Origin: Alphaproteobacteria bacterium
GTDB lineage: Bacteria; Pseudomonadota; Alphaproteobacteria; SHVP01
Length of the DNA stretch: 64,000 nucleotides
Assembly (NCBI GenBank): GCA_040216735.1
Contig: JAVJOO010000004.1
Location: 121,396-185,395, forward strand
Direction: 5' to 3'
Shown here: positions 25,824-59,024 of the stretch, in pieces
Layout of the letters: each line of letters begins with the position of its first letter
How positions within the stretch are numbered: the stretch's first letter is position 1
Made by a program: the position numbers and the translations under genes
Notes under the pieces: model-generated
Seen by the model: only the letters and a program-made list of their open reading frames with translations
What the model was told of the DNA's origin: nothing
Databases searched by the model: none

Positions 25824-26978
25824 TCATTCCTTGACGCCGCCGAACACCATAAAGGCGCCCACGTTGCCGAAGTCGCCCGAGGCGAGCTCCCGGCGCCCGC
25901 GATTTTCGCGGTCGCGCCGCGCACTTGTTGCGGTCGTATAGATCACCTTGTCCCGCGCGAAGCCGACGTCGCTCGCCAGCTGCGGGAGGTCCAAGTCGTG
26001 CATCGGTCCGATAAAAGGTTCGTTGTTGAAATAGGTATCCCAATCCGGAACGAAGGCGTCGTAGGGATCCAGGCCACGCCAGTCGACCCCATCCATATGC
26101 AGCATCACGCCACCGGGCTTCAGGAGCCGGTGGCATTCGCGCAGGATGCGGGGCAGGGCGCGGCGGGAGGTTTCATGGATGATGATCTGCGACACGATCA
26201 GATCGAAATGGGCATCCGGAAAATCGGTCGTCTCGGCATTTTGTTGCGAAAAATGAACCGTCTTGCCCAAGGCTTGGGCCCGGGCGTGGGCATAGCGCAC
26301 CATCGGCGCGCCGATGTCGAACGCATGCACTTCCGCGTTTGGAAAGGCGTCGCACCAGGGCAGTGTCCCGTGTCCGACTGAGCATCCCATGTCGAGGATT
26401 CGCTTAGGCGAAAGGCCGGGATGGTTCTCCTTGACCCACGCGACGAGGCTCTGACCGAAGTCGTCGTTGAGGGTCCCGCGCAGGCCCATCGAGAACAGAT
26501 AGATACCGCGGTCGTACAGCGCGCCGGCGAAGAGATCGTCTTCGCCGAGTTCGCTGTGGTAGCCGCCTGGCATGCAATGAATATCGACTGCCGCGTGATA
26601 GCGCGGGATTTCCAGCGCCGGGTCGAGGCGCAGGGAACCTCGACCGCGGACCGTGCCCGCGCGGGCTTTCAGGTCGCTCCATCGACGTGCCACCGGTTCG
26701 CCGACCGAATCCCACATGAGCTCCTGTGCCGTACGCTTGAGCGCACTTGCAGCTTGGTAATAGGAATCTTCGGACAGGGCTCGTCGCACCTCGTGGCGCG
26801 TCGTTGGCACCCGGCCCTTGGCACGCCGAAAGGCGGGCTTGACCCGGTTCTCGTAGACCGATTTCGTGCCAGGCGCGACGTTCCCCGAAAGATGCGACTT
26901 CAGCCCTACAGCGAAGTGCTGCCGCGCCGCTTCGTCGTGATCCGCATCCACCAGTATTGCGTGTTTGGTTTGTGGCAT
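25824..26978 (-). CDS. Class I SAM-dependent methyltransferase with N-terminal extension (paralog of 4376..5524)
   Basis: Motif I ILDMGCSVGHGTLP. About 55% identity to the first methyltransferase over the core. GGGAG Shine-Dalgarno before M18 (MPQTKHAIL). Confidence 0.7.
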   Translation of the reverse strand: MPQTKHAILVDADHDEAARQHFAVGLKSHLSGNVAPGTKSVYENRVKPAFRRAKGRVPTTRHEVRRALSEDSYYQAASALKRTAQELMWDSVGEPVARRWSDLKARAGTVRGRGSLRLDPALEIPRYHAAVDIHCMPGGYHSELGEDDLFAGALYDRGIYLFSMGLRGTLNDDFGQSLVAWVKENHPGLSPKRILDMGCSVGHGTLPWCDAFPNAEVHAFDIGAPMVRYAHARAQALGKTVHFSQQNAETTDFPDAHFDLIVSQIIIHETSRRALPRILRECHRLLKPGGVMLHMDGVDWRGLDPYDAFVPDWDTYFNNEPFIGPMHDLDLPQLASDVGFARDKVIYTTATSARRDRENRGRRELASGDFGNVGAFMVFGGVKE

Positions 26979-28636: not shown

Positions 28637-28637
28637 C

Positions 28638-29426
28638 ATGGCCTACAAAGACATAAAGTATGCGGTGCGTGCGGGCGTCGCGACCATCACGATCAATCGG
28701 CCGCAGGTGCACAACGCTTTTCGCGGGCAGACTTGCGAAGAAATGGTCGATGCCTTCAACAAGGCGGCCTGGGACGACGACATCGGTGTCATCGTTCTGA
28801 CGGGAGCGGGCAAGAAAGCCTTCTCGTCTGGCGGCGACCAGGGCGCCCACGACCATGTCTATGACGGACGGGGCACCATCGGGTTGCCGGTCGAAGACCT
28901 GCATTCGATCATGCGCGATGCGCCCAAACCGGTGATTGCCAAGGTGCGCGGCTGGTGCATCGGCGGGGGCAACGTACTGGCGACGATCTGCGATCTCACG
29001 ATCGCGGGAGAGAGCGCGATCTTCGGCCAGGTTGGCCCGAAAATGGGATCGATCGACCCAGGATTCGGCACCAACCTTTTGGCGCGTCATGTCGGCCAGA
29101 AGAAAGCCAAGGAAATTTGGTTTCTTTGCCGCCGCTACAGCGCGTTCGAAGCGATGGAGATGGGGCTCGTCAACGCGGTCGTTCCTGATGCGCAACTCGA
29201 TGCCGAGGTGCGGCGCTGGTGCGACGAAATTCTGGAAATGAGCCCGACGGCAATCGCGTTAGGCAAGCGGGCATTCAACGCCGAGACCGAATCGATTCGC
29301 GGTCTTTCCAATTTGGGCAACATCGCGGTGCGGCTGTACTACGATTCCCCCGAAGGTCGCGAAGGCGAACGTGCTTTTCGCGCTAAGCGCAAACCCCGTT
29401 TCAGGAAGGTGGCGCAAAAGCGTTGA
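28638..29426 (+). CDS. Crotonase-fold enzyme, MenB / BadI-like (DHNA-CoA synthase or 2-ketocyclohexanecarboxyl-CoA hydrolase family)
   Basis: VLTGAGKKAFSSGGDQ and GWCIGGGNVLATICDL are MenB/BadI-type crotonase motifs. The start is 2 nt after the ligase stop. Confidence 0.7.
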   Translation: MAYKDIKYAVRAGVATITINRPQVHNAFRGQTCEEMVDAFNKAAWDDDIGVIVLTGAGKKAFSSGGDQGAHDHVYDGRGTIGLPVEDLHSIMRDAPKPVIAKVRGWCIGGGNVLATICDLTIAGESAIFGQVGPKMGSIDPGFGTNLLARHVGQKKAKEIWFLCRRYSAFEAMEMGLVNAVVPDAQLDAEVRRWCDEILEMSPTAIALGKRAFNAETESIRGLSNLGNIAVRLYYDSPEGREGERAFRAKRKPRFRKVAQKR

Positions 29427-30516: not shown

Positions 30517-30637
30517 CTGATCGGTAGCTTATTTTCCGCGGTCCTCCCGGCCTTCGGCGTGGCGCGGAAAAGATCATCGATCGGTTGGAACGGCGCGTGA
30601 CGAACCCCTAACGCGGTCCGCGCCATTTCCAGATCAA

Positions 30638-30677
30638 GGCCGTCCAGCTCTGCTGGACGGCCTTTCTCTATTTTGTG
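30638..30677 (+). terminator. Rho-independent terminator candidate (ggccgtccag-ctct-gctggacggcc then tttctctattttg)
   Basis: 10-bp GC-rich stem followed by a T-rich run. Overlaps the 3' end of the convergent dehydratase gene, so it may act bidirectionally. Confidence 0.45.
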
Positions 30678-31651
30678 TCCGGGCTCTCGGGGTCGACGAG
30701 TAGGCGCTGAACCATAGCCGGGGTGATGTTGCCGCCGGTTACGAGGGCAACGGTCTTCTTCCCTGCGCTAACCCGCCCGGACAGGAATCCCGCAGCGGCG
30801 ACGACGCCGGCCGGCTCTCCCAAAACCTTTCCACGGTACAAGAGCGTACGAAACGCCGACTCGATATCGATCTCGGTGACAAGAACGATCTCGTCGACGT
30901 AGCGCTGGACATGGGCAAACGGGAATGCCCCAGGCCGCACGGCGGAAAGCCCATCTGCAATACTGTCCCAATAGTCGATCGTCGCCGGTGTCCCGGCACG
31001 CAACGAAACGTAGGCCGCGTTGGCGCGCTCGGGCTGCACGCCGATGACGGCAACGTGCGGTGCGCTCTCCTTGATCGCTGTGGCGACACCGGCGATCAGG
31101 CCGCTACTGCTGACCGGCACCAGGACCTGTTCCACATCGGGCATTTGATCGAGTAGTTCCAGGCCCAGGCTCCCGTGCCCGGCGGGGATGGGGCGTTCCT
31201 CCCATGTATCGATGACGGTCATGCCCCGCTCCCGGGCGACGGCCTCGGCAGCCGGTTGCCGCGCCAGTGCATCGTTGCCGCAAAACACCACTTCTGCGCC
31301 ATACCCGCGTGCCGCCTCGACCTTAAAGGGGCTGGTGCGGTCCATCATGACGACGACGATCGGGATATCGTGGCGCTGGCCGGCGAGCGCGAAGGCTTGG
31401 GCGAAGTTGCCGGAGGACGTCAGCACCAGGCCGTGCTTGAGATTCTGCGGGCCCATGACACGGATTGTGTTGAACGCCGCCCGCACTTTGTATGCCCCGG
31501 TGACCTGAAGATTCTCAAGCTTCAGGTAAAGCGATTCGCGCCCGATCTCCGAGGGCGTGCGGGCGAGGGGGACGATCGGGGTGCGCCGAACTATCGCCGG
31601 CAAATTTTCATGGGCGGCGCGAATCTCTTCCAAGGTGACGAATTGGGTCAT
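30668..31651 (-). CDS. PLP-dependent threonine/serine dehydratase (threonine ammonia-lyase / serine racemase family)
   Basis: PLP-lysine motif LQVTGAYKVRAAFN and a glycine loop. 327 aa, no ACT regulatory domain. Confidence 0.8.
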   Translation of the reverse strand: MTQFVTLEEIRAAHENLPAIVRRTPIVPLARTPSEIGRESLYLKLENLQVTGAYKVRAAFNTIRVMGPQNLKHGLVLTSSGNFAQAFALAGQRHDIPIVVVMMDRTSPFKVEAARGYGAEVVFCGNDALARQPAAEAVARERGMTVIDTWEERPIPAGHGSLGLELLDQMPDVEQVLVPVSSSGLIAGVATAIKESAPHVAVIGVQPERANAAYVSLRAGTPATIDYWDSIADGLSAVRPGAFPFAHVQRYVDEIVLVTEIDIESAFRTLLYRGKVLGEPAGVVAAAGFLSGRVSAGKKTVALVTGGNITPAMVQRLLVDPESPDTK

Positions 31652-32289
31652 ACCACCAGTCCGGTAATGGCGAAGGATTCGATGACGCGCACGCCCGCTT
31701 CCTTCATCGCGGTAACCGCGCCGTTAACGCCCCGCTCATCGAGACCCCGGCAAGCATCGACGATCAGTACGGTGTCGAAGCCATGATTGCGCGCATCCAT
31801 TGCGCTGAAGCGGACGCAGACGTCGGTTGCCAGACCAGTCAGGAAGACGCGGTCGATCCCACGCTCGCGCAGGTATCCGGACAAGCCGGTGGTCGTCGTG
31901 CGGTCGTTCTCGAAGAAGGCCGAGTACGAATCGATCTCAGGGCGAAACCCCTTGCGAATCACCAAGTGGGCGCGACCCTGGTCGAGGGCGGGATGAAAGG
32001 CGGCGCCGTCGGTCCCCTGGACACAATGGTCGGGCCACAACACTTGGTCGCCGTAATCGAGCGTGACCGTCTCGAAGGCCTTTCGACCGCGGTGTTGCGC
32101 GGCAAAAGAGGTGTGGTTCGCGGGATGCCAATCCTGCGTCAGGACGACGTTGTCGAAGTGAGTCTGAAGCCGGTTGACGATCGGTATGATCCCATCGCCC
32201 TCGGGCACGGCAAGGGCGCCGCCAGGGCAAAAATCGTTCTGGATGTCGATCGCCAACAGAACGTCGGTTTTGGAAGGCGCAAGGCGCAT
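31648..32289 (-). CDS. pncA: Nicotinamidase / pyrazinamidase (isochorismatase family)
   Basis: VLLAIDIQNDFCPGGALAVPEGD...DWHPANHTSF matches E. coli PncA closely. Real start M50 of the track ORF. Four-nt ATGA overlap with the dehydratase start. Confidence 0.8.
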   Translation of the reverse strand: MRLAPSKTDVLLAIDIQNDFCPGGALAVPEGDGIIPIVNRLQTHFDNVVLTQDWHPANHTSFAAQHRGRKAFETVTLDYGDQVLWPDHCVQGTDGAAFHPALDQGRAHLVIRKGFRPEIDSYSAFFENDRTTTTGLSGYLRERGIDRVFLTGLATDVCVRFSAMDARNHGFDTVLIVDACRGLDERGVNGAVTAMKEAGVRVIESFAITGLVV

Positions 32290-32493: not shown

Positions 32494-33477
32494 ATGGCTA
32501 CCAAGGTACTGCCGATCGCGCATTCGATTCTCGATTCGCCGGCGCTGCGCGATCTCATCGCCGACGCTTACGAGTTGCCGCAGCCCGTCCATTGCGAACT
32601 GCTGACTCGGGGTATGAACGATGTCTACCTCGTCCGCGGCGGTGAGACGACTTACGCCAGCCGGGTCTGGCGGGCAGGGTTCCGGAGCGAAGCGGATGTG
32701 GCGTACGAGACGGCCTTCTTGAACTTCCTCGATGCGGCTGGCTTCCCCGTTCCCGAAGCGGTGCCGACCCGCGCCGGTACCCTCTATGTGCCGCTTCTGG
32801 CCCCCGAGGGTCAGCGCCACCTATCGCTGTTTCGTTGGGTCGCCGGTACGCCGTTCGCGGAGGACCCGGACCCGGCGATCGCGCACCGCCTGGGGGCCCT
32901 TTTTGGGCGCTTGCACCTGGCCGCCAAGGGATTCGCGCCGAAAGCCGTGCGTCAGATCGACAGTGCGGGCCAGCTCCGTCGTGGACTTCCCGCGCTACAA
33001 CGCATGGTGGCCCACCGCGAAGGCGATAGCGCGTGGTACGCGCGCGCGGTAGAGGCGATGGCCACTGCGTTGAAAAAGCTTCCCGAAAAGGACGCACCGA
33101 AGGGGCCGAGTCACGGCGACTTCCATTGCCACAACGCCTTCATCGAAAACGACGAGATCACACTGCTCGATTTCGACAACTGCGGTGTCGACCATTGGGC
33201 CGCGGAGATCGTCAGCTTCACCTGGGCCAACGATTACATCGGCGGCTTCGACCCAGCCGTCAACGAATCGTTCGTCGCGGGCTACGAGAGCGAACGACCG
33301 ATGGGGGCGGCCGAACGCGCGCTGCTTCCTCTATTCTATGCGGCCAAAGAGCTGCGCTTCTTGATCGGTTTTGCAAACAACGTGAACGCCGTCGGCCACA
33401 CGCCGCTGCTCAATCCCGACTTGGATTGGTTTGCCGAGCGCACCCGCCGCCACATCGGCGCTCTGGGCATTCTTTAA
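32494..33477 (+). CDS. APH-fold phosphotransferase (aminoglycoside phosphotransferase / homoserine kinase II-like), paralog 1
   Basis: Brenner-type catalytic motif HGDFHCHNAF and DFDNCGVDHWAAE. 327 aa. Confidence 0.75.
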   Translation: MATKVLPIAHSILDSPALRDLIADAYELPQPVHCELLTRGMNDVYLVRGGETTYASRVWRAGFRSEADVAYETAFLNFLDAAGFPVPEAVPTRAGTLYVPLLAPEGQRHLSLFRWVAGTPFAEDPDPAIAHRLGALFGRLHLAAKGFAPKAVRQIDSAGQLRRGLPALQRMVAHREGDSAWYARAVEAMATALKKLPEKDAPKGPSHGDFHCHNAFIENDEITLLDFDNCGVDHWAAEIVSFTWANDYIGGFDPAVNESFVAGYESERPMGAAERALLPLFYAAKELRFLIGFANNVNAVGHTPLLNPDLDWFAERTRRHIGALGIL

Positions 33478-33486
33478 CCGGCGCGG

Positions 33487-34758
33487 ATGATCGCCGAGAC
33501 CGACCCGCCGCAGCCCGCGGCGCACGATAGCCCCTACCGCTGGGTCGTTCTGAGTGGAATCTGGTTGATCTATTTTTCCTTCGGTCTCCAGATCAATGCA
33601 CTGGCGCCCCTGGTCGGTCCGATCAGCGTCGATCTTGGCCTCAGTTACTCGGCGATGGGGACGGTTCTGAGCGCGTGGCCGCTCTTTTATGTTTTCGCCT
33701 CCATCCCGTGCGGCGCGCTGGTCGATCGGATCGGGACGCGGCGCGCGCTCCTCATCGCGGCAGCGGTGATGTCGGCCTCGGCGCTCGCCCGCGTCGCTGC
33801 TGTCGATTTCTGGAGCCTATTTTTCGCGATCGCCCTCTTCGGTATCGGCGGTCCGTTGCTCTCGATCACGGCACCCAAAGCAGTCGCTAAGTGGTTCGTC
33901 GGACGCGAGCGCGGCTTGGCGATGGGGATCTACTTCACCGGCGTATCGATTGGCAGTGTCGCCGCCCTCGCTTTGTCGAACACTGTCTTGATGCCGCTCG
34001 CCGACGGTAACTGGCGGCTGGTGCTCTTTTTCTACGCGGCGATTACGGGGGTGGGCGGCGCGTACTGGTATGCCATTTCGCGCCGTAAAACGTTCCGCCG
34101 CGCGGATACCGGCGCGGACGAGGCGGGCAGGGGCACCGTGCGCCAACAAATCGCGGTATTCGGCTATCTGCTACGTATCCCCGCGGTAGTGCTCATTCTG
34201 TTGATGAGTATGGGCATGTTCTATTTCTACGATTCCACCACGAATTGGTTGCCCGAAATTCTCATCGCCCATGGATTGGCGCCGGGGCAGGCCGGCCTCT
34301 GGGCCGCAGCGCCGGTCGCGGTTGGGGTCGCCGCGTCTTTGCTCATTCCCCGCCTAGCGACGCCCGAGCGGCGCGGCGTCATTCTGTTGATGCTGTTCGT
34401 GTGTGTTGGGTTGGGGGCGGTGCTTCTGCTGTCGTCGAACCCGATCGCACTGGGCGGCGCATTTATCGGCCACGGGATCGCGCGCGGCGCCCTGATGACT
34501 GTCGCCCTAATGATGCTCATGGAAACCAAGGGTATTGCCGCCCATCAAATCGGTGCGGCGGGCGGGCTCTTCTTTACGGCGGCCGAGATCGGCGGCGTCT
34601 TCGGGCCATTGAGCTTTGGCGTTCTCTTCGATATCACCGGGACGTTTGCGGCACCCCTTTTCGTCCTGACAGGGGTTAGTGTCGCGCTTATCATCTTGCT
34701 CGGCCTACATCGGCGCGCGGTCGAACGCGACGCACCGCATGTCGCCGCGGTAACCTAA
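33487..34758 (+). CDS. MFS transporter (12 TM), first of a tandem pair
   Basis: MFS loop motif VDRIGTRRAL and 12 predicted TM segments. 423 aa. Confidence 0.75.
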   Translation: MIAETDPPQPAAHDSPYRWVVLSGIWLIYFSFGLQINALAPLVGPISVDLGLSYSAMGTVLSAWPLFYVFASIPCGALVDRIGTRRALLIAAAVMSASALARVAAVDFWSLFFAIALFGIGGPLLSITAPKAVAKWFVGRERGLAMGIYFTGVSIGSVAALALSNTVLMPLADGNWRLVLFFYAAITGVGGAYWYAISRRKTFRRADTGADEAGRGTVRQQIAVFGYLLRIPAVVLILLMSMGMFYFYDSTTNWLPEILIAHGLAPGQAGLWAAAPVAVGVAASLLIPRLATPERRGVILLMLFVCVGLGAVLLLSSNPIALGGAFIGHGIARGALMTVALMMLMETKGIAAHQIGAAGGLFFTAAEIGGVFGPLSFGVLFDITGTFAAPLFVLTGVSVALIILLGLHRRAVERDAPHVAAVT

Positions 34759-34761
34759 GGA

Positions 34762-36036
34762 ATGACGGTTCTGACCAGTACACCCAGCGACGCCCGCGTG
34801 ATCGATCCGGCCGGACACCCGTTTCGTTGGGCCATGCTGGGGGGCGTCTGGTTAATCTATTTTTCGTTCGGATTGCTATCGGCATCGATGGCGCCGCTCG
34901 TCGCGCGCATCACGGCGGATCTCGAGATCAGTCACACCGCGATGGGCAGCATCCTGGGAGCATGGCCCCTGGTGTATATCGTTGTGGCAATCCCATGCGG
35001 TGCGTTCGTCGACCGGGTTGGCCTGAAATGGTCGTTGTTCCTGGCTGCGTTGATCATGGCGACGTCGGGGGGACTGCGTGCAGTCGCACCCGATTTCTGG
35101 ACCATGTTCCTCGCGGTCGGAATTTTCGGGATCGGGGGCCCGCTGATTTCCATCGGTGCGCCGAAGGCGATTGCGCAATGGTTCAAAGGCCCCGAACGCG
35201 GCCTCGCGATGGGCATCTATATCACCGGCCCTGCGCTCGGCAGTGTCCTGTCGCTCTCGTTGACCAATAGTGTGCTGCTGCCGTTGGTGGGCGGTGAATG
35301 GCGTTCGGTCCTACTGGTTCATGCCGGCTTGGTGGTCGCCGCTGGATTCGCATGGCTGCTCGTGGCGATGAACCCGATCAACCGCGCCGTCGAGGCCACG
35401 CACCGGCGCCGTGGCTCGATGGGCGAGCAGATCGCGGTCTTCGGTACGCTGCTGCGGATTCCGTCTGTCGTACTCGTGCTGATGATGAGCGTTGGGATAT
35501 TTTTCTTCTATCACGGCATGGGAAACTGGCTGCCCGAGTTGCTGCGGCACGGTGGCATGGCGCCCTCGGCGGCGGGTCTCTGGGCCTCGTTACCCGTGAT
35601 CGTCGGGATCGTCGGGTCGCTGGTGGTACCGCGCTTGGCCACACCGGGCCGCCGGTTCGCGATTCTGCTGATTTTGTTCGTCAGCATCGCCCTCGGCGCG
35701 ATCCTACTGTTCAGCCCGGCGATGCCGAGCATCGTCGCCTCGCTCATCGTGCAGGGGCTGGGGCGCGGTTCTTTGATGGCCGTGGCGATGCTCATCTTGA
35801 TGGAGACCCGCGGCGTGGAGGCCCAACATATGGGCGCGGCAGGTGGTCTGTTTTTCTCGGCTGCCGAGATCGGCGGCGTCCTTGGGCCGCTTACGATCGG
35901 CATGGTTTCGGACCTTACCGGTGGGTTCGACGGCGCCCTGTGGATGATGATCGCGATCAGCGGCGCCCTGGTGCTGCTGCTGTTCGCCCATCGCGCAGCC
36001 GAACGCCGGGCGGCTCTCCTGGCCGGTGCGAATTGA
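34762..36036 (+). CDS. MFS transporter, tandem paralog
   Basis: VDRVGLKWSL. About 50% identity to the upstream transporter. 424 aa. Confidence 0.75.
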   Translation: MTVLTSTPSDARVIDPAGHPFRWAMLGGVWLIYFSFGLLSASMAPLVARITADLEISHTAMGSILGAWPLVYIVVAIPCGAFVDRVGLKWSLFLAALIMATSGGLRAVAPDFWTMFLAVGIFGIGGPLISIGAPKAIAQWFKGPERGLAMGIYITGPALGSVLSLSLTNSVLLPLVGGEWRSVLLVHAGLVVAAGFAWLLVAMNPINRAVEATHRRRGSMGEQIAVFGTLLRIPSVVLVLMMSVGIFFFYHGMGNWLPELLRHGGMAPSAAGLWASLPVIVGIVGSLVVPRLATPGRRFAILLILFVSIALGAILLFSPAMPSIVASLIVQGLGRGSLMAVAMLILMETRGVEAQHMGAAGGLFFSAAEIGGVLGPLTIGMVSDLTGGFDGALWMMIAISGALVLLLFAHRAAERRAALLAGAN

Positions 36037-36039
36037 CGT

Positions 36040-36417
36040 TTACTTGGTGAAGTGCGGGTTAAGAATCACGCCAAACGGGTTGCCGAATGGGTCGAACACG
36101 GCCGCCACGACGATGCCGCCGCCGACATCGTGCGGGGGTTCCAGCGCGGTTGCTCCCAAACCCAGTAATCGCTGATAGGCGGCTTCGGCGTCGCCGACGC
36201 CCCAATAACAAAGCATCGTCGGTGTCGCCGGCGGCGCAGTCTCAGCGGGCATCAAGCCAAGCTCGTAGCCCGACACACTGAAGCCGACATAAAAGGATTC
36301 GTCGAACGAGGGTGGAGAGCCGAGAACCTCGGTGTACCACGCCTTTGCAGCGTCCAAATCGGCGACCCGGTAAATGCATGTTTGAAGGTTGAGGAACGGA
36401 CTTGTCGCGTCGGTCAT
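36040..36417 (-). CDS. VOC-family protein (glyoxalase-like)
   Basis: CIYRVADLDAAKAWYTEVLG...GGGIVVAAVFDPFGNPFGVI. Starts at MTDATSPF. Confidence 0.7.
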   Translation of the reverse strand: MTDATSPFLNLQTCIYRVADLDAAKAWYTEVLGSPPSFDESFYVGFSVSGYELGLMPAETAPPATPTMLCYWGVGDAEAAYQRLLGLGATALEPPHDVGGGIVVAAVFDPFGNPFGVILNPHFTK

Positions 36418-36538
36418 GGGAACCCTCCTTCGGTGCGGCATCAGTGTAGCGCGCCCCGCCCTTGCGCGCTGTCGGCACTATGCCAGCATTGCGTCGGGGG
36501 CGGCGCCGGGTAGGATGATGAGATACAGGGGAGGAACG

Positions 36539-37528
36539 ATGAACCAACACGTTATTCCGGCGGCCCATACCATTCTTGACGCCGTCGCGTTGGGCGAAGC
36601 GATCAACGCCCACTATGGATTGGGCACCCCATTCGTTTGCGAACTGCTGCACCGAGGGATGAACGATTTTTACCTCGTCCGTGCAGCCGGAAAAAAGTAT
36701 GTGGCGCAGGTTTGGCGACCGGGTACGACGCCTGTCGACAAGGTCGACTACCAAATGGATTTTATGCTGCACCTAGATGCGGGGGGGATTCCTCTGCCGG
36801 TACCGCAGCGCGGAGCGGACGGATCGGGTCACTTGATCGTCGCTGGTCCCGAAGGCGAGCGCCCCGTCGCTCTATTTCGGTTCGTCGAAGGTAAGGCGTT
36901 CTCGTCGGACCCGACCGCGTCGGTGTCGCGCAAGATGGGCGTGATCTTCGGTCAGATTCATAAACTTTCGGAAGGCTGGGACCGGACGAAAGAGGCGCGC
37001 TTGATCGACCGCGAAAAGGGAATTGCGAGTTCCTTTCCCTACCTTGAAAAACTGGCCGCCCATCGCCCCGACGACCTCGCCTACTACCGCGAGGTGGCCG
37101 ACGCGGTGACGGCGGGGTACCGCACGGTGAGGACGGCGGGGAACGTACCGTCGGGCGCTATCCATGGCGATTTCCATATCCACAATGCGTTCGTGCGGGC
37201 GAATGACGACGTAACCATCATGGATTTCGATGCCTGCGGCCTGGATTATTTCGCCCAGGAACTCATGAGCTACCGTTGGTCGATCGAGAAGAACGATTTG
37301 CCGATGTCGCTGTGGGAGGTGTTCTTGGAGGGGTACGAGACGGTGCGGCCGCTCTCCGATCTCGAGCGCAGCCATATCCCGCTGTTCCTGGTCGGCAAGG
37401 AGTTTCAGTACCTGTGCGGCTTTTCACGCGCGGTCAACGCGATCGGCCATGTCGCGTTCCATTTTCCAGGCTTCGACTGGTTCGCCGAAAGCGTGCGCCG
37501 CCATGTCGACGACGCCAAACTGCTTTAG
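36539..37528 (+). CDS. APH-fold phosphotransferase, paralog 2
   Basis: HGDFHIHNAF and DFDACGLDYFAQE. GGGAGGAA Shine-Dalgarno before the ATG at 36539. The upstream 50 aa of the track ORF are an artefact. Confidence 0.75.
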   Translation: MNQHVIPAAHTILDAVALGEAINAHYGLGTPFVCELLHRGMNDFYLVRAAGKKYVAQVWRPGTTPVDKVDYQMDFMLHLDAGGIPLPVPQRGADGSGHLIVAGPEGERPVALFRFVEGKAFSSDPTASVSRKMGVIFGQIHKLSEGWDRTKEARLIDREKGIASSFPYLEKLAAHRPDDLAYYREVADAVTAGYRTVRTAGNVPSGAIHGDFHIHNAFVRANDDVTIMDFDACGLDYFAQELMSYRWSIEKNDLPMSLWEVFLEGYETVRPLSDLERSHIPLFLVGKEFQYLCGFSRAVNAIGHVAFHFPGFDWFAESVRRHVDDAKLL

Positions 37529-37653
37529 GGACTCTGCACCGCGAAAAAGCGATTTGCGTCCAAGGAATTCGACAACGGCCCTGGGCCAATGGGGCCGATT
37601 GCTGTTAGAACACCGCTACTAGCGCCCCTTCAGTTCCCTAAGCGAGTCCGCCG

Positions 37654-38895
37654 TTGCCGACGCCCTTAGCTATCTTGCCCGTATCCGCCTTGCTACTCGG
37701 CGTGACCGGGCTCGTGGTCGGGACCGGCGTGTTGGGTGTGCTTCTGCCCCTGCGTGGTGTTGCCGAAGGATTCTCTACCTATGGCGTCGCCGTGATGGGC
37801 GGCGGTTACTTCCTTGGGTTCATCGCGGGATGTTTGCTGACGCCGAGGCTGGTCGAGCGCGTTGGCCACATTCGGCTTTTTGCCTCATTGGCGGCGATTT
37901 GCGCGGCGACCGTGCTGGTCCATGCGCTGGCGGTCAACCTGCCGGTCTGGATCGCCGCTCGTATGGTAACCGGTTTCGCCGTCGCGGGTCTCTACATCGT
38001 CATAGAAAGCTGGCTCAACCATCAAGCGACGAACGAGACCCGCGGACGGCTCTTCGCGGTCTACATGGTCGTGAATTTCGTTGCGCTGATGACGGGCCAG
38101 TTGCTGATGGTGGTGATGGAAGTCGGGGCGGTGACGCCGTTCCTCGTAACCTGCCTGGCCGTGTGCCTTTCGCTGGTGCCGGTAGCGTTGTCGCGGACGA
38201 CGGCCCCCGTGGCGGAACCGACCGAACCGTTGAGCCTTCTCGCGCTCTATCGAATTTCGCCGCTCGGCACTGTGGGGTGCGTGCTTGTCGGCATCGCGAA
38301 CGGCTCATTCTGGTCGCTCGGACCGGTCTTCGGCGCCGAGCAGCTCGGATCGACGGCGCTTGCCGCCGTCTTTGTCAGCGTCTTCGTTTTAGGCGGGGCG
38401 GTTGGCCAGTGGCCGATCGGGCGCCTGTCGGACCGTTGGGACCGTCGCAAAGCCATCGTCGTAACCTGCCTGGCGGCGGGTTTGGGCGGCGTACTGATGG
38501 TCGTTTGGCCAGGCGGTTCCTTGGCGACGCTGGTCTGGGGCGGGGTGACCGGCGTCTTCATGCTGTCGATCTACTCGCTGTGCGTTGCGCACACCAACGA
38601 TCACGTTCAAAGCAAAGACTTCGTCGCGGCGAGCAGCGGGCTCTTGCTCTACTACGGACTGGGCGCTGTGAGCGGCCCAATCTTGGCTGCCGCGTTGATG
38701 TCCGAACTTGGGCCGCGCTTTTTGTTCCTGTGGACGGCTGTAGCCCACCTCGCGTTGGCGGGGTTTGCGATGTACCGCATGGGCCGCCGCGGCCCGGTCG
38801 CGGCGACCGATCGCGAGGACTTTGTACCGATGTTGCGGCCCGTGCCGGTCGCTACCGACATGGATCCGCGGGCGCCCACCGACTCTGCACCCTAG
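37654..38895 (+). CDS. MFS transporter (third, distinct subfamily)
   Basis: 12 TM segments, motif GRLSDRWDRRKA. Start codon uncertain. Confidence 0.7.
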   Translation: MPTPLAILPVSALLLGVTGLVVGTGVLGVLLPLRGVAEGFSTYGVAVMGGGYFLGFIAGCLLTPRLVERVGHIRLFASLAAICAATVLVHALAVNLPVWIAARMVTGFAVAGLYIVIESWLNHQATNETRGRLFAVYMVVNFVALMTGQLLMVVMEVGAVTPFLVTCLAVCLSLVPVALSRTTAPVAEPTEPLSLLALYRISPLGTVGCVLVGIANGSFWSLGPVFGAEQLGSTALAAVFVSVFVLGGAVGQWPIGRLSDRWDRRKAIVVTCLAAGLGGVLMVVWPGGSLATLVWGGVTGVFMLSIYSLCVAHTNDHVQSKDFVAASSGLLLYYGLGAVSGPILAAALMSELGPRFLFLWTAVAHLALAGFAMYRMGRRGPVAATDREDFVPMLRPVPVATDMDPRAPTDSAP

Positions 38896-38953
38896 CGCCG
38901 AAAAAGCCCGCCGCCGCCTGTTGCCTGCCGTCCAAGCCGCCTAAACTGAGGTC

Positions 38954-39619
38954 ATGTCCACTCCGCCCAAGCAAGAAGTCCACGTCAACGGACTGTTCCA
39001 GACCCCGGTCTTGGCGACGGTCCTGCCCGATAGCGTGACGCTCAGCCCGGCCCTCGAAAAAATCGTCCTGGCGCGCGAGAAATCCCATCCCTCGACCCAG
39101 CACAGCAACTTGGGCGGTTGGCAATCAGACACCGAGTTCTTGTCATGGGGCGGCCCCACCGCGGCATCGCTCGTCGGCCAAGCCCGCGCCTTGGTCGACC
39201 GGTTGACTGCCGATCGACATGGCCGGGCCGTGAAGGTCGACTGGCACATCAACGCGTGGGCCAACGTCAACCGCCTGCACCATGGCAACGAGTACCATAC
39301 CCATGCCGGCTGTTTTTGGTCGGCGGTCTACTACGTCGCCGACGGCGGGATCGCCGACGACCCGGCCCTTGGCGGTCAGCTTGAGTTCGCCGATCCGCGC
39401 GGTGTCGGACCGGCGATGCACGCACCGCTGCTCGCGTTTAGTTTTCCCGGCGGGCAATCCCTCGGGGCATCCGAGTCGATCACGCCGCGAAGCGGCATGA
39501 TGGTGATCTTCCCGTCCTTCCTTAGTCACGGGGTCCGGCCTTACCTTGGGAAGAGCGTCCGGATATCGATCGCCATCAACTTCTCTGCGACGCCGGCCCT
39601 AAATCCCTTGCTCGCTTAA
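38954..39619 (+). CDS. Putative 2OG-Fe(II) oxygenase (PF13759 / TIGR02466-like)
   Basis: HTHAGCFWSAVYYV...GQLEFADPRG...MVIFPSFLSHGV gives an HxD/E...H facial-triad-like pattern. Confidence 0.55.
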   Translation: MSTPPKQEVHVNGLFQTPVLATVLPDSVTLSPALEKIVLAREKSHPSTQHSNLGGWQSDTEFLSWGGPTAASLVGQARALVDRLTADRHGRAVKVDWHINAWANVNRLHHGNEYHTHAGCFWSAVYYVADGGIADDPALGGQLEFADPRGVGPAMHAPLLAFSFPGGQSLGASESITPRSGMMVIFPSFLSHGVRPYLGKSVRISIAINFSATPALNPLLA

Positions 39620-39669
39620 CGCGCAACGCGCCAAATCGCGCACACCGCCTGAACCCGAGGACCCTCGAT

Positions 39670-40653
39670 ATGCCGCTGCCTGTCGTTGCGATTGCCTTCA
39701 ACCCCGAGGATGAACGCGTCCGCCGGGAATTCGACGATGGACTGGCCGGGAAAGCCGGTGTGGTGTTCCTGCCCTCGCTCGAAGACGCCGCGCGCATCGA
39801 TGCGTTTACGTCGGCAAAGGCCGTTGTGGTGCGCGGATTCAAATCGGATTTGAGCTGGATCGATCCGAAGCTGATTGTGGGCAAGCTTATTCAGACGATG
39901 ATCGCCGGCGTCGATCAGCTCCCCTTCGATAGCCTGCCGCCCGGCGCGATGGTCGCCCACAACGGCGGCGCTTTCGCGCCGCAGATGGCCGAGCACATCG
40001 TTGGAATGATTTTGGCGGCCAAAAAGGATCTACTGGGCCGGCACCAGGCACTGGCGCGTGGCGCGTGGATGCAAGCCGACGGGACCCGTGAACTGCGCGG
40101 GGACACTTGTCTGATTGTCGGGTTCGGCGGGATCGGCAAGGCAACGGCGAAACTTCTGCGTGCTTTCGACGTTCGGATCGAGGCAGTCAATCGCAGCGGG
40201 CGAACCGACGAGCCGGTCGATACGATCGGAACGCTCGCGTCGTTGAACGAGCTGCTCCCGCGGGCCGATATCATTGTGCTCTCCCTTGGTCTGAACGCGC
40301 AGTCGCGGGACTTGATCGATCGCGAGGCCCTGGCATCGATGAAACGCGATGCAACGCTGGTCAACGTCGCCCGCGGCGCGGTGATCGATGAGGCGGCGCT
40401 CTTTGAGCACCTCCAGGCAAACCCATCCTTCTACGCCTGCATCGACACCTGGTGGGGGGAACCGTATCCCGACCGCAAATTCAGCGCGGCCTATCCGTTT
40501 ATCGATTTGCCGAACGTGATCGGCTCGCCGCATAACTCGGCCACGACCGGTACCTATTTCGTCAACGCTGCCCGTCATGCGGTTGCCAACGTCTGCCGCT
40601 ACCTGGAAACCGGTACCGCAGAGCGCCTTGTCACCGAGGCCGATCGCCCCTGA
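39670..40653 (+). CDS. D-isomer-specific 2-hydroxyacid dehydrogenase (NAD-binding)
   Basis: GFGGIGKATAKLL Rossmann motif. Catalytic pattern VNVARG...D, and H in IGSPHNSATT. Confidence 0.8.
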   Translation: MPLPVVAIAFNPEDERVRREFDDGLAGKAGVVFLPSLEDAARIDAFTSAKAVVVRGFKSDLSWIDPKLIVGKLIQTMIAGVDQLPFDSLPPGAMVAHNGGAFAPQMAEHIVGMILAAKKDLLGRHQALARGAWMQADGTRELRGDTCLIVGFGGIGKATAKLLRAFDVRIEAVNRSGRTDEPVDTIGTLASLNELLPRADIIVLSLGLNAQSRDLIDREALASMKRDATLVNVARGAVIDEAALFEHLQANPSFYACIDTWWGEPYPDRKFSAAYPFIDLPNVIGSPHNSATTGTYFVNAARHAVANVCRYLETGTAERLVTEADRP

Positions 40654-40907: not shown

Positions 40908-42299
40908 TTGGAACTGTCGACTTCAAACGCTGGCCAAGACCGACCGAAGCTCACCGAGCGGCTGAACCGCGCGATGTCCAACGTCCCCACTCGACTCGGC
41001 GTCTGGCCCAGTGCGGTGCTGGCAAGCGTCTTGTTCACCCTCGTTCTGAATGCAGTAGCGCTTCTCTCCTTCTGGGTATTCGATCTTCCCGGATATAGGG
41101 AACGACCGGCGAATGGCGTCTTTCTCGCCATTATTCCGTTGGTTGTGGCCGTGCCGATTTGGTTGGCGGTATTCGCGGCGTTGGATCGGGCGAGACGCGC
41201 GGAACTTAGGGCCCGCGACAATGAAGCGAAGTTTCGGGACCTCGCCGAGGGGTCGGTCCAAGGCATTTGTATTCAACGCAATTTCGAGCCGCTCTATTGC
41301 AACCGGGCCTTTGCCGACATCTTTGGCTTTGGATCGGTGGCCGAAGCGCTCGAATCCGGCACGATGAGTTGGATGTTGCCCGAGGCGGCACGCACGGCGG
41401 CGCTCGAACGATCAAAAGAAAGCCGTCAACTCGGTCGTGCCCGCGAGGCCATACACCCGGCGTTCCGTAAAGACGGGAGCGAAGTGTGGGTCGAAAGTCA
41501 TATCCAGCATGTCATTTGGGACGGGGTCGAGGCGGTTCAACTGACCGTCCTCGACGTCAGCGAACGCCGACAGATCGAGCGAATGAAGAACGAATTCGTT
41601 TCGACGGTCAGTCACGAATTGCGGACGCCATTAACCTCCATCAAAGGCGCCCTTGGCCTCCTCGAATCGGGCATGGTCGGACACATTTCCGAACGAGCCC
41701 AGGAAATCGTCACGATCGCCGCGAACAACAGCGACCGGCTCATTCGATTGATCAACGATATTCTCGACATTGAGCGTATCGAAGCCGGTCGCTCTTCGCT
41801 CCGCAGAGAATCCGTTGACCTCATCTCGTTGGTTCGGCTGGCGGTAGATCAGTCTATTGGATTAGCGCATGGCGAAGGGGTCAGCCTCTCGGTGCTCGAC
41901 ACACATACCCCTGTTCATGCCGAGGGCGACCGGGACCAACTCTTGCAGGTCTTGGTGAATCTTCTCGCGAATGCGATCAAGTTCTCGCCCCGCGGCACGG
42001 ATGTGGTCGTGCGTGTCGTTTCTGCCGAAACGTCGGTGCGCGTCTCTGTGACCGACCGCGGTCCGGGCATCTCGGAGGAGTTTCGGCCGCATCTATTCGA
42101 GAAATTTTCCCAAGCCGATGCGTCGACTGCGCGCAAACACGGCGGCACCGGCCTTGGTCTCCACATCTGCAAACTCATCGTCGATCGTCATCGCGGCACG
42201 ATTGGGTACCAGCCGGCCCCAGGTGGAGGATCGATCTTCTACTTCGACATTCCCAAGACGATCGCCGCGACAAGCCCAAAGCGCCTCGCGGCCGAGTAG
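40908..42299 (+). CDS. PAS-domain sensor histidine kinase (membrane-anchored)
   Basis: Two N-terminal TM segments, a PAS region, H-box HELRTPLTSI, N-box NLLANAIKFS and G-box GGTGLGLHICK. Confidence 0.8.
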   Translation: MELSTSNAGQDRPKLTERLNRAMSNVPTRLGVWPSAVLASVLFTLVLNAVALLSFWVFDLPGYRERPANGVFLAIIPLVVAVPIWLAVFAALDRARRAELRARDNEAKFRDLAEGSVQGICIQRNFEPLYCNRAFADIFGFGSVAEALESGTMSWMLPEAARTAALERSKESRQLGRAREAIHPAFRKDGSEVWVESHIQHVIWDGVEAVQLTVLDVSERRQIERMKNEFVSTVSHELRTPLTSIKGALGLLESGMVGHISERAQEIVTIAANNSDRLIRLINDILDIERIEAGRSSLRRESVDLISLVRLAVDQSIGLAHGEGVSLSVLDTHTPVHAEGDRDQLLQVLVNLLANAIKFSPRGTDVVVRVVSAETSVRVSVTDRGPGISEEFRPHLFEKFSQADASTARKHGGTGLGLHICKLIVDRHRGTIGYQPAPGGGSIFYFDIPKTIAATSPKRLAAE

Positions 42300-55337: not shown

Positions 55338-55679
55338 ATGATCTTTCACGTCTGTAAATCCGCTGACTGGGAAGCGGCCAAAGCATCCGGCCGCTATGCA
55401 GGGTCGGCCGACGATACCCGCGACGGCTTCATTCATTTCTCGGCCATCGAGCAACTCCGCGAAAGCGTGGCGCGGCACCGCGCCGGTCAGTCGGGCCTGG
55501 TGTTACTGGTGGTCGATCCGACCCCGCTCGGCGAGGCGCTGAAGTGGGAGCCTTCGCGCGGCGGCGCGCTCTTTCCCCACCTTTATGGTTCCCTGCCGGT
55601 CGAAGCGGTGGCCGCGGCCCACGATCTTCCGCTCGGTGCAGACGGCGCTCATATCTTTCCGGAGTCGGTTTTCGCGTGA
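55338..55679 (+). CDS. DUF952-family protein
   Basis: MIFHVCKSADWEAAKASGRYAGSADDTRDGFIHFS is a DUF952-like N-terminus. 113 aa. Confidence 0.55.
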   Translation: MIFHVCKSADWEAAKASGRYAGSADDTRDGFIHFSAIEQLRESVARHRAGQSGLVLLVVDPTPLGEALKWEPSRGGALFPHLYGSLPVEAVAAAHDLPLGADGAHIFPESVFA

Positions 55680-55727: not shown

Positions 55728-56717
55728 ATGTTTCCCATACGTCATTCGGTCGTCGACAACGTCGCGCTGGGCGAAGAGATTCGCCGGCGCTGGGATTTGC
55801 CGGGTCCTTTCCGGTGCGAACTGATCACCCGCGGTATGAACGACGTCTACGTCGTGCACAGTGGGAAGGACCGTTTCGCCGCCCGTGTCTGGCGCGCGGA
55901 CAAGCACACCGCAGACAGCGTAACCTGGGAGCTCGACTATCTGGCCCACCTTAAGAAAAAGGGTGTCCCTGTCATCGCGGCGGTTCCCGACAGCCAGGGC
56001 GCGCTGTCCTTTGGGATCGACGCACCCGAAGGAACCCGCCGCGTTTGCCTGTTCGAATGGGCCGATGGCGATCAGTTCTTTGCCGACCCCAAGCCCGACT
56101 TGGCGCAGAGGGTCGGCGCCACGGTCGCGCGCATGCATGCCGCAGGCGCCGACTTCAAGGGCAAGACCGCCCGCCCGATCGACTTCCCCGGCGAAATCCG
56201 GCGTAAGTTTCCGGCGTTGCTGGCCCGCCTCGACGACCGCCCCGACGACCGGACCTACTACACCAAGGTCGCGGAGGCGCTTCCTGAAAAACTCGAAGCT
56301 GCATACGCCGCCGGAGTTCCCTACGGGCCGATCCACGGTGACATCCACCTCCGGAATGTCTTCGTCACTCCGGGCGATGGTTTCACCATTCTCGATTTCG
56401 ACACCTGCGGCGAGGCGCATTTGATGCACGACTGCATGAGCCCCGCCTGGGCCAACACCTACTTCATGCATAACGGCAACAAGAAGATCACCCCCGAAAC
56501 CACAGCCGCCTATATGCGCGGCTACGAAGAGGTCCGTCCGCTGGAGGACTTCGAGCGCGCCTGCCTACCCCTGTTCATGCTGTCCAAGGAATTCAGCTAC
56601 ATGTGTGGTATGTCCGACGGCGTCAATGTCGTCGGCCACATGTCGTTCGGCCCACACCATTTCGACTGGTTCGCCCAGTCGGTTCGTCGTCACGTCGCCG
56701 AGGCAGGCCTGTTTTAG
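55728..56717 (+). CDS. APH-fold phosphotransferase, paralog 3
   Basis: HGDIHLRNVF and DFDTCGEAHLMHD. GGGAGGAG Shine-Dalgarno before the ATG. The track ORF begins at an upstream GTG. Confidence 0.7.
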   Translation: MFPIRHSVVDNVALGEEIRRRWDLPGPFRCELITRGMNDVYVVHSGKDRFAARVWRADKHTADSVTWELDYLAHLKKKGVPVIAAVPDSQGALSFGIDAPEGTRRVCLFEWADGDQFFADPKPDLAQRVGATVARMHAAGADFKGKTARPIDFPGEIRRKFPALLARLDDRPDDRTYYTKVAEALPEKLEAAYAAGVPYGPIHGDIHLRNVFVTPGDGFTILDFDTCGEAHLMHDCMSPAWANTYFMHNGNKKITPETTAAYMRGYEEVRPLEDFERACLPLFMLSKEFSYMCGMSDGVNVVGHMSFGPHHFDWFAQSVRRHVAEAGLF

Positions 56718-58258: not shown

Positions 58259-58266
58259 GGTGTTCC

Positions 58267-58887: not shown

Positions 58888-59024
58888 GAGTTCTATTTCT
58901 AGGAAGGCACCCGCTTCGTCAACGGGAAACCGTGCGGACTGCCGGAAACCAGCAGAAACGGCTAAGGTCCGGGCATGGTCGCGGCGCGCGGCCGCTCGTT
59001 TGTTCGTCCCGGAGGGAACCCACC

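Follow-up and report, generated by a model that had tools for sequence, protein, structure and literature searches.

Paired APH-Fold Kinases with a Transporter and a 2-Hydroxyacid Dehydrogenase in Alphaproteobacteria: A Candidate Supply Module for Phosphorylated Hydroxy Acids

Introduction

Kinases of the APH fold include homoserine kinase II (ThrB2, PDB 2ppq), the aminopropanol kinase (6ef6), and the amicoumacin kinase AmiN (6sui/6sum), which are the closest described relatives of the proteins studied here. We analysed a stretch of 64,000 nucleotides from an alphaproteobacterial genome (lineage SHVP01; assembly GCA_040216735.1, contig JAVJOO010000004.1, positions 121,396 to 185,395), called hereafter the window, which encodes three paralogous APH-family kinases, K1, K2, and K3. 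The first two are accompanied by transporters of the major facilitator superfamily (MFS) and are followed by a gene of the D-isomer 2-hydroxyacid dehydrogenase family. The window kinases are only about 20% identical to ThrB2 and carry a signature of their own (CELLxRGMNDxY, RVWR, GYxxxRP); moreover, they come as paralog pairs with a transporter and have no threonine-pathway neighbours. They are 18–23% identical to the aminopropanol kinase and AmiN, and the window shows neither a phospho-lyase, nor a microcompartment, nor the context of an amicoumacin cluster. Nothing supports an amine-bearing substrate for them.

Two other types of system invite comparison. The DUF1537 acid-sugar kinases, together with MFS transporters of the anion:cation symporter (ACS) type and PdxA/PdxB-type dehydrogenases, serve threonate/erythronate catabolism. 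Their logic is the same (i.e., import of an acid sugar, phosphorylation, and oxidation of a 2-hydroxy acid), but their kinase fold is entirely different, and the likeness is thus one of analogy and not of homology. On the other hand, LvaA, ACAD10, and ACAD11 are APH-fold kinases with a dedicated partner enzyme, the LvaA/LvaC mechanism having been described (PMC11342911). K3 recalls them by its position near a coenzyme A (CoA) ligase and an acyl-CoA dehydrogenase (ACAD), but this ACAD appears to be of a generic kind, the ACAD-associated APH structure 3dxp ranks low among the structural matches, and K1 and K2 have no ACAD.

A further point of comparison is the biosynthesis of the cofactor F420, whose side chain is L-lactyl. 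In this pathway, CofC takes a three-carbon phospho-acid, phosphoenolpyruvate (PEP) being used where a dehydro-F420 reductase domain exists. The classical substrate of CofC is 2-phospho-L-lactate, and its proposed lactate kinase, “CofB”, was still unidentified according to a 2021 review (PMC8498797); the source of the side-chain precursor in Proteobacteria devoid of the dehydro-F420 reductase is also still debated (PMC8764529). In three lineages, cofGHDCE is directly preceded by orthologs of K1, K2, and the dehydrogenase. CofB is defined by its activity alone, the window has no cof genes, and the dehydrogenase that goes with the kinases is of the D-isomer family. We propose, with a probability of roughly 40%, that the module K1–MFS–K2–dehydrogenase acquires a small hydroxy-carboxylate, by uptake or by synthesis, and adds a phosphate to it; an F420 precursor of the 2-phospholactate type is the most specific candidate for the product.

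K1 and K2 Form a Single Conserved Unit

Loci with related kinases (numbered with the prefix L) were collected by exact-protein look-ups, by a scan of one genome per species, and by a metagenome scan; the window proteins were mapped onto them and all their open reading frames (ORFs) were clustered de novo. A neighbour-joining tree of the kinases gave four groups, i.e., a K1 clade and a K2 clade, which are sisters; a separate K3 clade; and a large S clade. K1 and K2 co-occur in each of the 16 loci left after dereplication, so that their association is no accident of the window. In the deeper relatives, the two genes are adjacent, often with an overlap of 4 bp (L006, L008, L017, L018): this overlap is seen in L006, the ORF layouts of L017 and L018 show genes that abut or overlap, and the deep-branching L017 has the order MFS–K1–K2–MFS3–oxygenase–methyltransferase. 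K2 of the window is 48–50% identical to K2 of two distant loci, L108 and L175, and only 31–34% identical to their K1. Because K1 and K2 are always found together and are adjacent or translationally coupled in relatives, they are a single ancient orthologous two-kinase unit and not two copies of one kinase–MFS cassette. The initial annotation of the window had described reiterated cassettes, a description that must give way to that of two sister orthologous groups. Comparison of gene neighbourhoods nevertheless upheld the kinase–MFS linkage that it had noticed, which is kept across very divergent genomes.

In the sister clade of the whole kinase family, fusions of two APH domains and long rows of tandem APH genes occur, which shows that pairing recurs and that working in pairs or sets is a recurrent tendency. 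These double-APH proteins were considered as fused K1–K2 pairs, a possibility that we rejected, as they belong to the sister clade and stem from independent duplications. In one array (L092:380-10010), eight or more APH domains follow one another, the stops overlapping the next starts, and the fused double-APH protein P0194 is among them; another locus of this clade (L094:2711-7310) reads GH39–APH–(APH–APH)–APH. Distant relatives of the kinases also occur as fusions, such as P0297 (APH + Methyltransf_32, 793 aa) and P0319 (GNAT + APH, 508 aa). P0297 does not provide a kinase–methyltransferase Rosetta stone, its partner being of a different family (Methyltransf_32) with no similarity to the methyltransferase of the window.

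The Transporter and the Dehydrogenase as Partners of the Pair

The kinases have an MFS gene at most 6 kb away in 15 of the 16 K1/K2 loci, in 31/32 sphingomonad loci, and in 7/12 gammaproteobacterial loci. The lone K1/K2 locus without one, L005, has a transposase-like gene between its kinases. In the window, the tandem MFS pair and the third, unrelated MFS of the initial annotation are confirmed: MFS1 and MFS2 share 53% of their residues over 397 aa, and MFS3 shares with them only membership of the superfamily. Their subfamilies are hard to name. The best NCBIfam subfamilies for MFS1 and MFS2 are of the D-galactonate/ACS and CynX types, all far below cut-off (for TIGR00893, D-galactonate, anion:cation symporter, MFS1 reaches 89.2 and MFS2 100.1 against 395), leaving PF07690 as an assignment at the superfamily level only; MFS3 scores 166 with PRK03633, whose cut-off is 361. 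MFS2 is 54–55% identical to the MFS of L108 and L175. More broadly, the MFS proteins of the collected loci form a single-linkage cluster that splits into three groups with a mutual identity of only 24–28%. We rejected for this reason one orthologous MFS family tied to all kinase clades, and, the relation of MFS2 to L108 and L175 excepted, we claim only a recurrent association with a transporter.

The dehydrogenase, placed in PF02826 (Table 1), stays below the cut-off of its best equivalog model, PRK06436 (135 against 261). Its orthologs (37–42% identity) directly follow K2 in L108, L175, and L178, so that a dehydrogenase stands beside the kinases in three divergent lineages. In L033, it adjoins a K3-like kinase, and the pair formed by the dehydrogenase and a histidine kinase is found there too.

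The other genes interspersed in the window are less constant. MFS3 is present in 7 of the 16 K1/K2 loci, including L017; the 2-oxoglutarate (2OG)-Fe(II) oxygenase in 8, L017 again among them; and the VOC gene in 9, all from close relatives. L002–L004 are without MFS3 and have instead an antisense FA_desaturase gene between K2 and the oxygenase, L012 having both. L005, L006, L008, L108, L175, and L178 are among the relatives that lack MFS3, the VOC gene, and the oxygenase altogether. These three genes are lineage-specific additions and not part of the core. Hence, of the import–phosphorylate–oxidise layout seen in the initial annotation, the kinase–MFS linkage and the dehydrogenase, recovered in three lineages, stand; MFS3, VOC, and the oxygenase, missing in many relatives, have to be removed from it.

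The Pair Opens an F420 Operon in Distant Marine Relatives

The metagenome scan yielded a locus, L108, in which a PncA gene on the opposite strand is followed by the low-GC operon K1–MFS–K2–2-hydroxyacid dehydrogenase–CofG–CofH–CofD–CofC–CofE–Fno–LLM (luciferase-like monooxygenase). A search with CofD, from which the best 120 of 4497 matches were taken, pointed to L175. The order from K1 to CofE is shared by L108, L175–L177, and L178, and was looked up as the same order in L178–L180, which represent a metagenome-assembled genome of the MarineAlpha2 type. Fno and the LLM come after CofE in L108, L175, and L176; the last gene of L178 is that of CofE, and the last gene of L177 that of the dehydrogenase. 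In the F420-linked loci, the gap between the dehydrogenase gene and cofG is 18–129 bp, the kinase and dehydrogenase genes being on the strand of the cof genes. The NCBIfam cut-offs are passed in L108 by CofE (TIGR01916, 239 against 181), by Fno (npdG), and by the LLM (TIGR03842, F420-dependent). L108 and L175 are mutually divergent (48% identity for K1 and 54% for CofD).

These lineages have a GC content of 31–33%, against 62% in the window, and yet the parts correspond. K1 of the window is 44–47% identical to K1 of L108 and L175, against 31–34% between K1 and K2. Moreover, a pair of FAD reductases of the flavocytochrome-c/TcuA-like kind, below the TIGR01813 cut-off in the window (Table 1), lies beside PncA and the K1–F420 operon in the GC-31% lineages (L108:1198-2601; L175:6325-9132), and the window copy at 15344-16741 is 63–66% identical to those of L108 and L175. 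Because K1, K2, the MFS, the dehydrogenase, and the FAD reductases are orthologous to those of L108 and L175, the window carries the same module, which was enlarged later when the MFS was duplicated and three genes (VOC, MFS3, and the oxygenase) were inserted. A sensor kinase gene follows the dehydrogenase in the window at the place where the F420-linked loci have their cof genes.

The cof genes themselves bear on the precursor. CofE in the F420-linked loci is 249–257 aa long and only an F420_ligase domain is called in it, so that it has no reductase domain. CofC enzymes that use 3-phosphoglycerate (3-PG) have Ser/Thr at a diagnostic position (PMC8764529). When aligned to the 3-PG enzyme 7p97, CofC of L175 has Gly at S162 and Leu at H145, and CofC of L108 has the same YGKxSF and DLGTN motifs, read by eye; of the three CofC sequences read, two are by these residues of the 2-phospholactate/PEP type. 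Since CofE lacks the reductase domain and CofC has Gly at the 3-PG position, a dedicated source of 2-phospholactate or of an analogue is plausible in the marine operons. Two hydroxyl kinases and a 2-hydroxyacid dehydrogenase upstream of the cof genes fit, by their context, such a supply role.

A New Subfamily of APH-Fold Kinases

All three window kinases pass the Pfam gathering threshold for APH (PF01636, 23.2 bits; scores in Table 1). They are 39–41% identical overall, K1 sharing 39% with K2, in line with the 35–40% first estimated, and 41% with K3. The N-terminal block C-E-L-[LI]-x-R-G-M-N-D-x-Y is exact in K1, K2, and K3, and the invariant signature of the family consists of CELLxRGMNDxY, RVWR, EGxR, HxDxHxxN, DFD, and GYxxxRP. 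The catalytic loop reads HGDFHCHN in K1, HGDFHIHN in K2, and HGDIHLRN in K3, with DFD in all three; the loop HGDFH.HN that had been attributed to the three kinases is thus found in K1 and K2 and not in K3, and the N-terminal block that had been attributed to them is indeed common to all. HxDxHxxN and DFD are retained across the K1, K2, and S clades. The first His or the G-D position deviates in three members of the K3 clade, and K1 of L108 has DYD instead of DFD.

The predicted structure of K1 (predicted local distance difference test score, pLDDT, 94.8) has a bilobal kinase fold, and the solved structures closest to it are ThrB2, AmiN, and the aminopropanol kinase, which also come first when PDB sequences are searched with a profile (E 1e-22 to 1e-25). 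As the same three relatives lead both searches, K1–K3 are, judging from sequence profiles and the model, a small, new, uncharacterised subfamily within the ThrB2/AmiN/aminopropanol-kinase branch of APH-fold small-molecule kinases. None of the more specific models applies to them. For K1, K2, and K3, respectively, the homoserine kinase II models gave 71.1, 61.7, and 69.8 against 271 (NF003558) and 53.7, 53.6, and 55.3 against 255.9 (TIGR00938), and the SrkA/YihE/RdoA model gave 38.9, 47.8, and 64.2 against 194 (NF008738). No NCBIfam resistance kinase model was reached, the best being APH(3')-A16 with 16.9 against 580. Neither fructosamine-3-kinase (FN3K, PF03881), nor the methylthioribose (MTR) kinase (MtnK), nor choline kinase (PF01633) matched at E ≤ 0.01, and the structural likeness to these three is at the superfamily level only. 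The check by hidden Markov models that accompanied the initial annotation therefore ends with APH passed, FN3K and MtnK without match, and homoserine kinase II far below cut-off, and its view that the three kinases are one subfamily is borne out. The L-threonine kinases BluE, PduX, and DabA were also considered as relatives and set aside, as they are GHMP kinases.

The family is rare: of the 5.8 billion clusters covered by a word-indexed search, 70 belong to it, and almost all of these come from uncultured Alphaproteobacteria; a profile search against 1.84 billion representatives gave 833 matches at E ≤ 1e-30. JGI labels some of the homologs “Ser/Thr protein kinase RdoA”. The present definition corrects the automatic names “homoserine kinase” and “RdoA” and gives this uncharacterised APH subfamily a recognisable signature. 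A defence function was likewise rejected on the outcome of a PADLOC search, in which K1–K3, the VOC protein, and the dehydrogenase had no match, and the oxygenase and the methyltransferase had generic-domain matches only.

Proposed Mechanism and Alternatives

The functional unit would consist of the four genes for K1, an MFS transporter, K2, and an enzyme of the D-2-hydroxyacid dehydrogenase family, with PncA transcribed divergently. The gene families, their orthology and synteny, the intact catalytic motifs, and the fold are shown by the analysis; we infer the substrate class, the direction of transport, the partnership of the kinases, and the fate of the product as follows. A small hydroxy-carboxylic acid would cross the membrane via the MFS, and/or arise from a 2-oxo acid via the dehydrogenase. 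K1 and K2 would then put a phosphate on one hydroxyl, with a nucleoside triphosphate as donor; they probably act as a pair, since both have intact catalytic motifs and are always co-inherited. The phospho-hydroxyacid would finally enter a downstream pathway, for which the most specific candidate, in the three marine lineages, is use as the CofC substrate, i.e., 2-phospholactate or a close analogue. It is rather unlikely, but worth stating, that K1 and K2 with the dehydrogenase and the MFS are the bacterial answer to the orphan CofB step, making 2-phospholactate or a closely related phospho-2-hydroxyacid for the F420 side chain, perhaps also for an as yet undescribed variant of it; the window would then hold an expanded copy of this supply module. 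The gene pair immediately precedes cofGHDCE in the same orientation, which makes the orphan CofB question directly and cheaply testable, and a role as lactate kinase, if true, would aid heterologous F420 production. Even if the link to F420 is wrong, the obligate pairing of the paralogs and their conserved transporter and dehydrogenase partners stand.

Several observations weigh against an F420 precursor as the product. There is no cof gene in the 64-kb window, nor, outside the F420-linked loci, any within 10 kb of K1/K2 in the searched database, which comprised the loci collected before L175–L181. The three F420-linked loci are from one low-GC marine group and are broadly collinear; as the collinearity of L175 with L177 and of L178 with L179 also extends over more than 8 kb upstream, adjacency to the cof genes may partly be general synteny. 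The motif scan of one genome per species did not find the kinase family in cultured F420-producing Proteobacteria, e.g., Pseudovibrio and Leisingera, and the K1/K2 family therefore cannot be a general CofB. The F420 side chain is L-lactyl, but the dehydrogenase belongs to the D-isomer family; a supply route is not obviously in need of a transporter or of two kinases; the nearest characterised kinases use amine-bearing substrates; and the subfamily assignment of the MFS is weak, the MFS of the three lineages being as distant from each other as stated above. Furthermore, since CofE lacks a reductase domain in the marine loci, the two FAD reductases could instead be a novel dehydro-F420 (dehydro-F420-0) reductase. 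Finally, the S-clade gene cluster described below looks, from its composition, like a catabolic one.

The main rival is an F420-independent catabolic or salvage route, which is essentially the idea of the initial annotation and which we regard as possible if somewhat doubtful. There, the MFS would import a hydroxylated amine or a hydroxy-amino acid (homoserine- or amino-alcohol-like), the kinases would trap it, and redox enzymes and pyridoxal phosphate (PLP) enzymes would process it. Such a route accords with the closest characterised kinases being homoserine kinase II, the aminopropanol kinase, and the amicoumacin kinase; with the Ser/Thr-dehydratase-like PLP enzyme and PncA upstream; with the sarcosine oxidase genes that follow K2 in L005; with the uptake and hydrolysis clusters that house S-clade kinases; and with the absence of nearby cof genes from most K1/K2 loci. 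However, it has no conserved phospho-lyase or threonine-synthase-type partner, the PLP enzyme is confined to close relatives (7/16 K1/K2 loci), the accessory genes for oxidation (2OG oxygenase, VOC) have a patchy distribution, and the route does not explain why the module is fused to the cofGHDCE operon in three lineages. As to the antibiotic-like molecules, glycated amines, or osmolytes once suggested as substrates, nothing points to any of them. Detoxification or resistance, with kinases that inactivate a hydroxyl-bearing natural product, an MFS that exports it, and a VOC protein that binds or resists it, seems improbable. AmiN and the corramycin kinase are related in structure, families of bleomycin and fosfomycin resistance belong to the VOC proteins, and the tandem APH paralog arrays of the sister clade resemble diversifying detoxification families; but the resistance kinase models and PADLOC (for the kinases, VOC, and the dehydrogenase) gave nothing, MFS1 and MFS2 resemble ACS or CynX types and not DHA1/DHA2 efflux pumps, the VOC gene is limited to close relatives, and the conservation of the dehydrogenase and a chromosomal synteny maintained across GC contents of 31–62% are atypical of resistance cassettes.

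Kinases acting on hydroxyacyl-CoA, after the logic of LvaA and ACAD10/11 in which the hydroxyl of an acyl-CoA is phosphorylated and the phosphate eliminated, would concern mainly K3, and perhaps K1/K2 by way of the CoA ligase and the BadI-like crotonase that lie upstream of them. In relatives, K3 comes after a FadD11-like ligase and before an ACAD, and an acyl-CoA ligase and the crotonase lie within 6 kb of K1/K2 in 9/16 and 13/16 loci, respectively. We give this explanation little chance, because the ACAD found two genes after K3 is closest to generic short/medium-chain ACADs, no ACAD10/11-like match appears among the PDB matches listed for it, 3dxp comes only 20th–21st against K1, no ACAD adjoins K1/K2, and the F420-linked loci have neither ligase nor crotonase; the LvaA/LvaC logic is thus not supported for K3. 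The last alternative, a housekeeping homoserine kinase II or a protein kinase of the SrkA/RdoA type, is hardly credible. It can draw on weak partial matches to NF003558, TIGR00938, and NF008738 and on the RdoA names given by JGI, but these matches amount to 54–71 bits where ThrB2 models ask for 256–271 and to 39–64 where SrkA asks for 194, three paralogs stand within one 64-kb window, and the family is rare with an invariant signature of its own. The fall of the kinases into the homoserine kinase II clade, which the initial annotation had named as an outcome that would refute its proposal, did not occur (about 70 bits against 271). We retain, as the first of these readings, a module that phosphorylates a small hydroxy-carboxylate.

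Other Contexts of the Kinase Family

S-clade kinases are found in Novosphingobium, Sphingobium, and Sphingomonas; in Azospirillum, Nitrospirillum, and Niveispirillum; and in Steroidobacteraceae. They belong to a cluster of about ten genes (L065:3000-15000, L043:4900-16900, and about 50 further loci) that encodes a TonB-dependent receptor; an MFS (replaced in Azospirillaceae by an M24 peptidase-like gene); between two and four alpha/beta hydrolases, of which one is translationally coupled to the kinase; a GPH transporter; an LLM together with an FMN monooxygenase of the NtaA family; and an S-adenosylmethionine (SAM) methyltransferase of 390 aa. A literature search for this cluster in sphingomonads returned nothing.

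K3 had been counted in the same locus as K1 and K2, from which both its separate clade and its context remove it. In relatives, the order is DUF952–K3–racemase-like gene–ACAD, downstream of LIV-type ABC genes and of the FadD11-like ligase. In another locus, L182, a kinase lies between an aldo-keto reductase and an NmrA-like reductase. These contexts have a theme in common, namely a hydroxyl that a hydrolase or a carbonyl reductase would produce or unmask and that would then be phosphorylated, which fits the general mechanism and not one particular substrate.

Gene Inventory and Neighbouring Genes of the Window

Every gene named in the initial annotation is present in the ORF list, with the coordinates and the Pfam/NCBIfam families then given (Table 1). 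Gene calls from public assemblies with an identical K1 agree with these coordinates, the VOC gene being cut to 125 aa; the isochorismatase-family gene upstream of K1, which is the PncA gene of Table 1, is likewise cut to 213 aa. This gene and that of the PLP enzyme go unmentioned in the initial annotation.

Table 1. Genes of the kinase module and of its surroundings in the window (scores are followed, where available, by the corresponding cut-off).
Feature	Coordinates	Strand	Match or remark
Two flavocytochrome-c-like FAD reductases	13867-15294 and 15344-16741	-	TIGR01813 248.8 and 255.8 bits, cut-off 285
Class I SAM methyltransferase (384 aa), frequent neighbour with an uncertain link	25824..26978	-	second copy at 4376-5524 (+)
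Acyl-CoA ligase and BadI/MenB-like crotonase	27077-29426	+	
PLP enzyme, threonine/serine dehydratase family, co-directional with PncA	30668..31651	-	PALP 228.5 bits
Nicotinamidase PncA, divergent from K1, conserved neighbour	31648..32289	-	NF008623 222.6 bits, equivalog cut-off 174
K1, APH-fold small-molecule kinase, first of the conserved pair	32494..33477	+	PF01636 93.9 bits
MFS1, module transporter, tandem duplicate	33487..34758	+	MFS_1 140 bits
MFS2, module transporter	34762..36036	+	ortholog of the lone MFS between K1 and K2 in L108, L175, L178
VOC/glyoxalase-fold protein, antisense	36040..36417 (ORF 36040-36441)	-	PF00903 56.2 bits, 125 aa
K2, APH-fold kinase, obligate partner of K1	36539..37528	+	PF01636 67.1 bits
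MFS3, YcaD/PRK03633-like subfamily, accessory	37654..38895	+	MFS_1 130.8 bits
2OG-Fe(II) oxygenase, PF13759/TIGR02466, accessory	38954..39619	+	PF13759 64.3 bits, cut-off 27; TIGR02466 69 bits, cut-off 62.5
D-isomer 2-hydroxyacid dehydrogenase family protein, part of the conserved module	39670..40653	+	2-Hacid_dh_C (PF02826) 150.6 bits, cut-off 25.1
PAS sensor histidine kinase, possible regulator, downstream of the dehydrogenase	40974..42299	+	HisKA, HATPase_c
DUF952 gene just upstream of K3	55338-55679		106.5 bits
K3, third kinase paralog, separate clade and context	55728..56717	+	PF01636 88.1 bits

Among the neighbours, PncA is found in 11 of the 16 K1/K2 loci and also in L108, where it too passes the equivalog cut-off (213.3 bits), L175, and L178. 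The PLP enzyme reaches no equivalog cut-off, its best score being 261.8 where 378.75 is required. The BadI-like crotonase reaches 411 bits against a cut-off of 468; with the acyl-CoA ligase, this near-BadI (2-ketocyclohexanecarboxyl-CoA hydrolase) protein hints at alicyclic or MenB-like CoA chemistry nearby. The 384-aa methyltransferase lies within 6 kb of a kinase in 8/16 K1/K2 loci, 20/32 sphingomonad loci, and 5/5 Azospirillaceae loci. Its two window copies have a helical N-terminal domain of about 190 aa and give flat structural matches, and its family is large and multi-copy, with more than 4400 homologs and an identity of 54–57% across Binatia, Thermodesulfobacteriota, and Xanthomonadales.

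Promoter and terminator scans stayed at background level, and a search for riboswitches and other RNA elements between 24000 and 44000 found none. Its sole match is a perfect GC-rich hairpin of 13 bp followed by a T-run (30636-30664) between the convergent genes of the PLP enzyme and of a LysR protein, likely a bidirectional terminator, which Rfam scored below threshold as a togavirus frameshift element, a false positive.

Around K3, the window differs from L025 and L118 by a DHA2-type MFS gene and a TetR gene inserted between K3 and the racemase-like gene (56714-58887, minus strand). The racemase-like region itself has two long overlapping ORFs on the same strand (58886-60646 and 58932-59948, plus strand) and is separated from the ACAD gene by a gap of 700 bp; the overlap could reflect a frameshift or a rearrangement.

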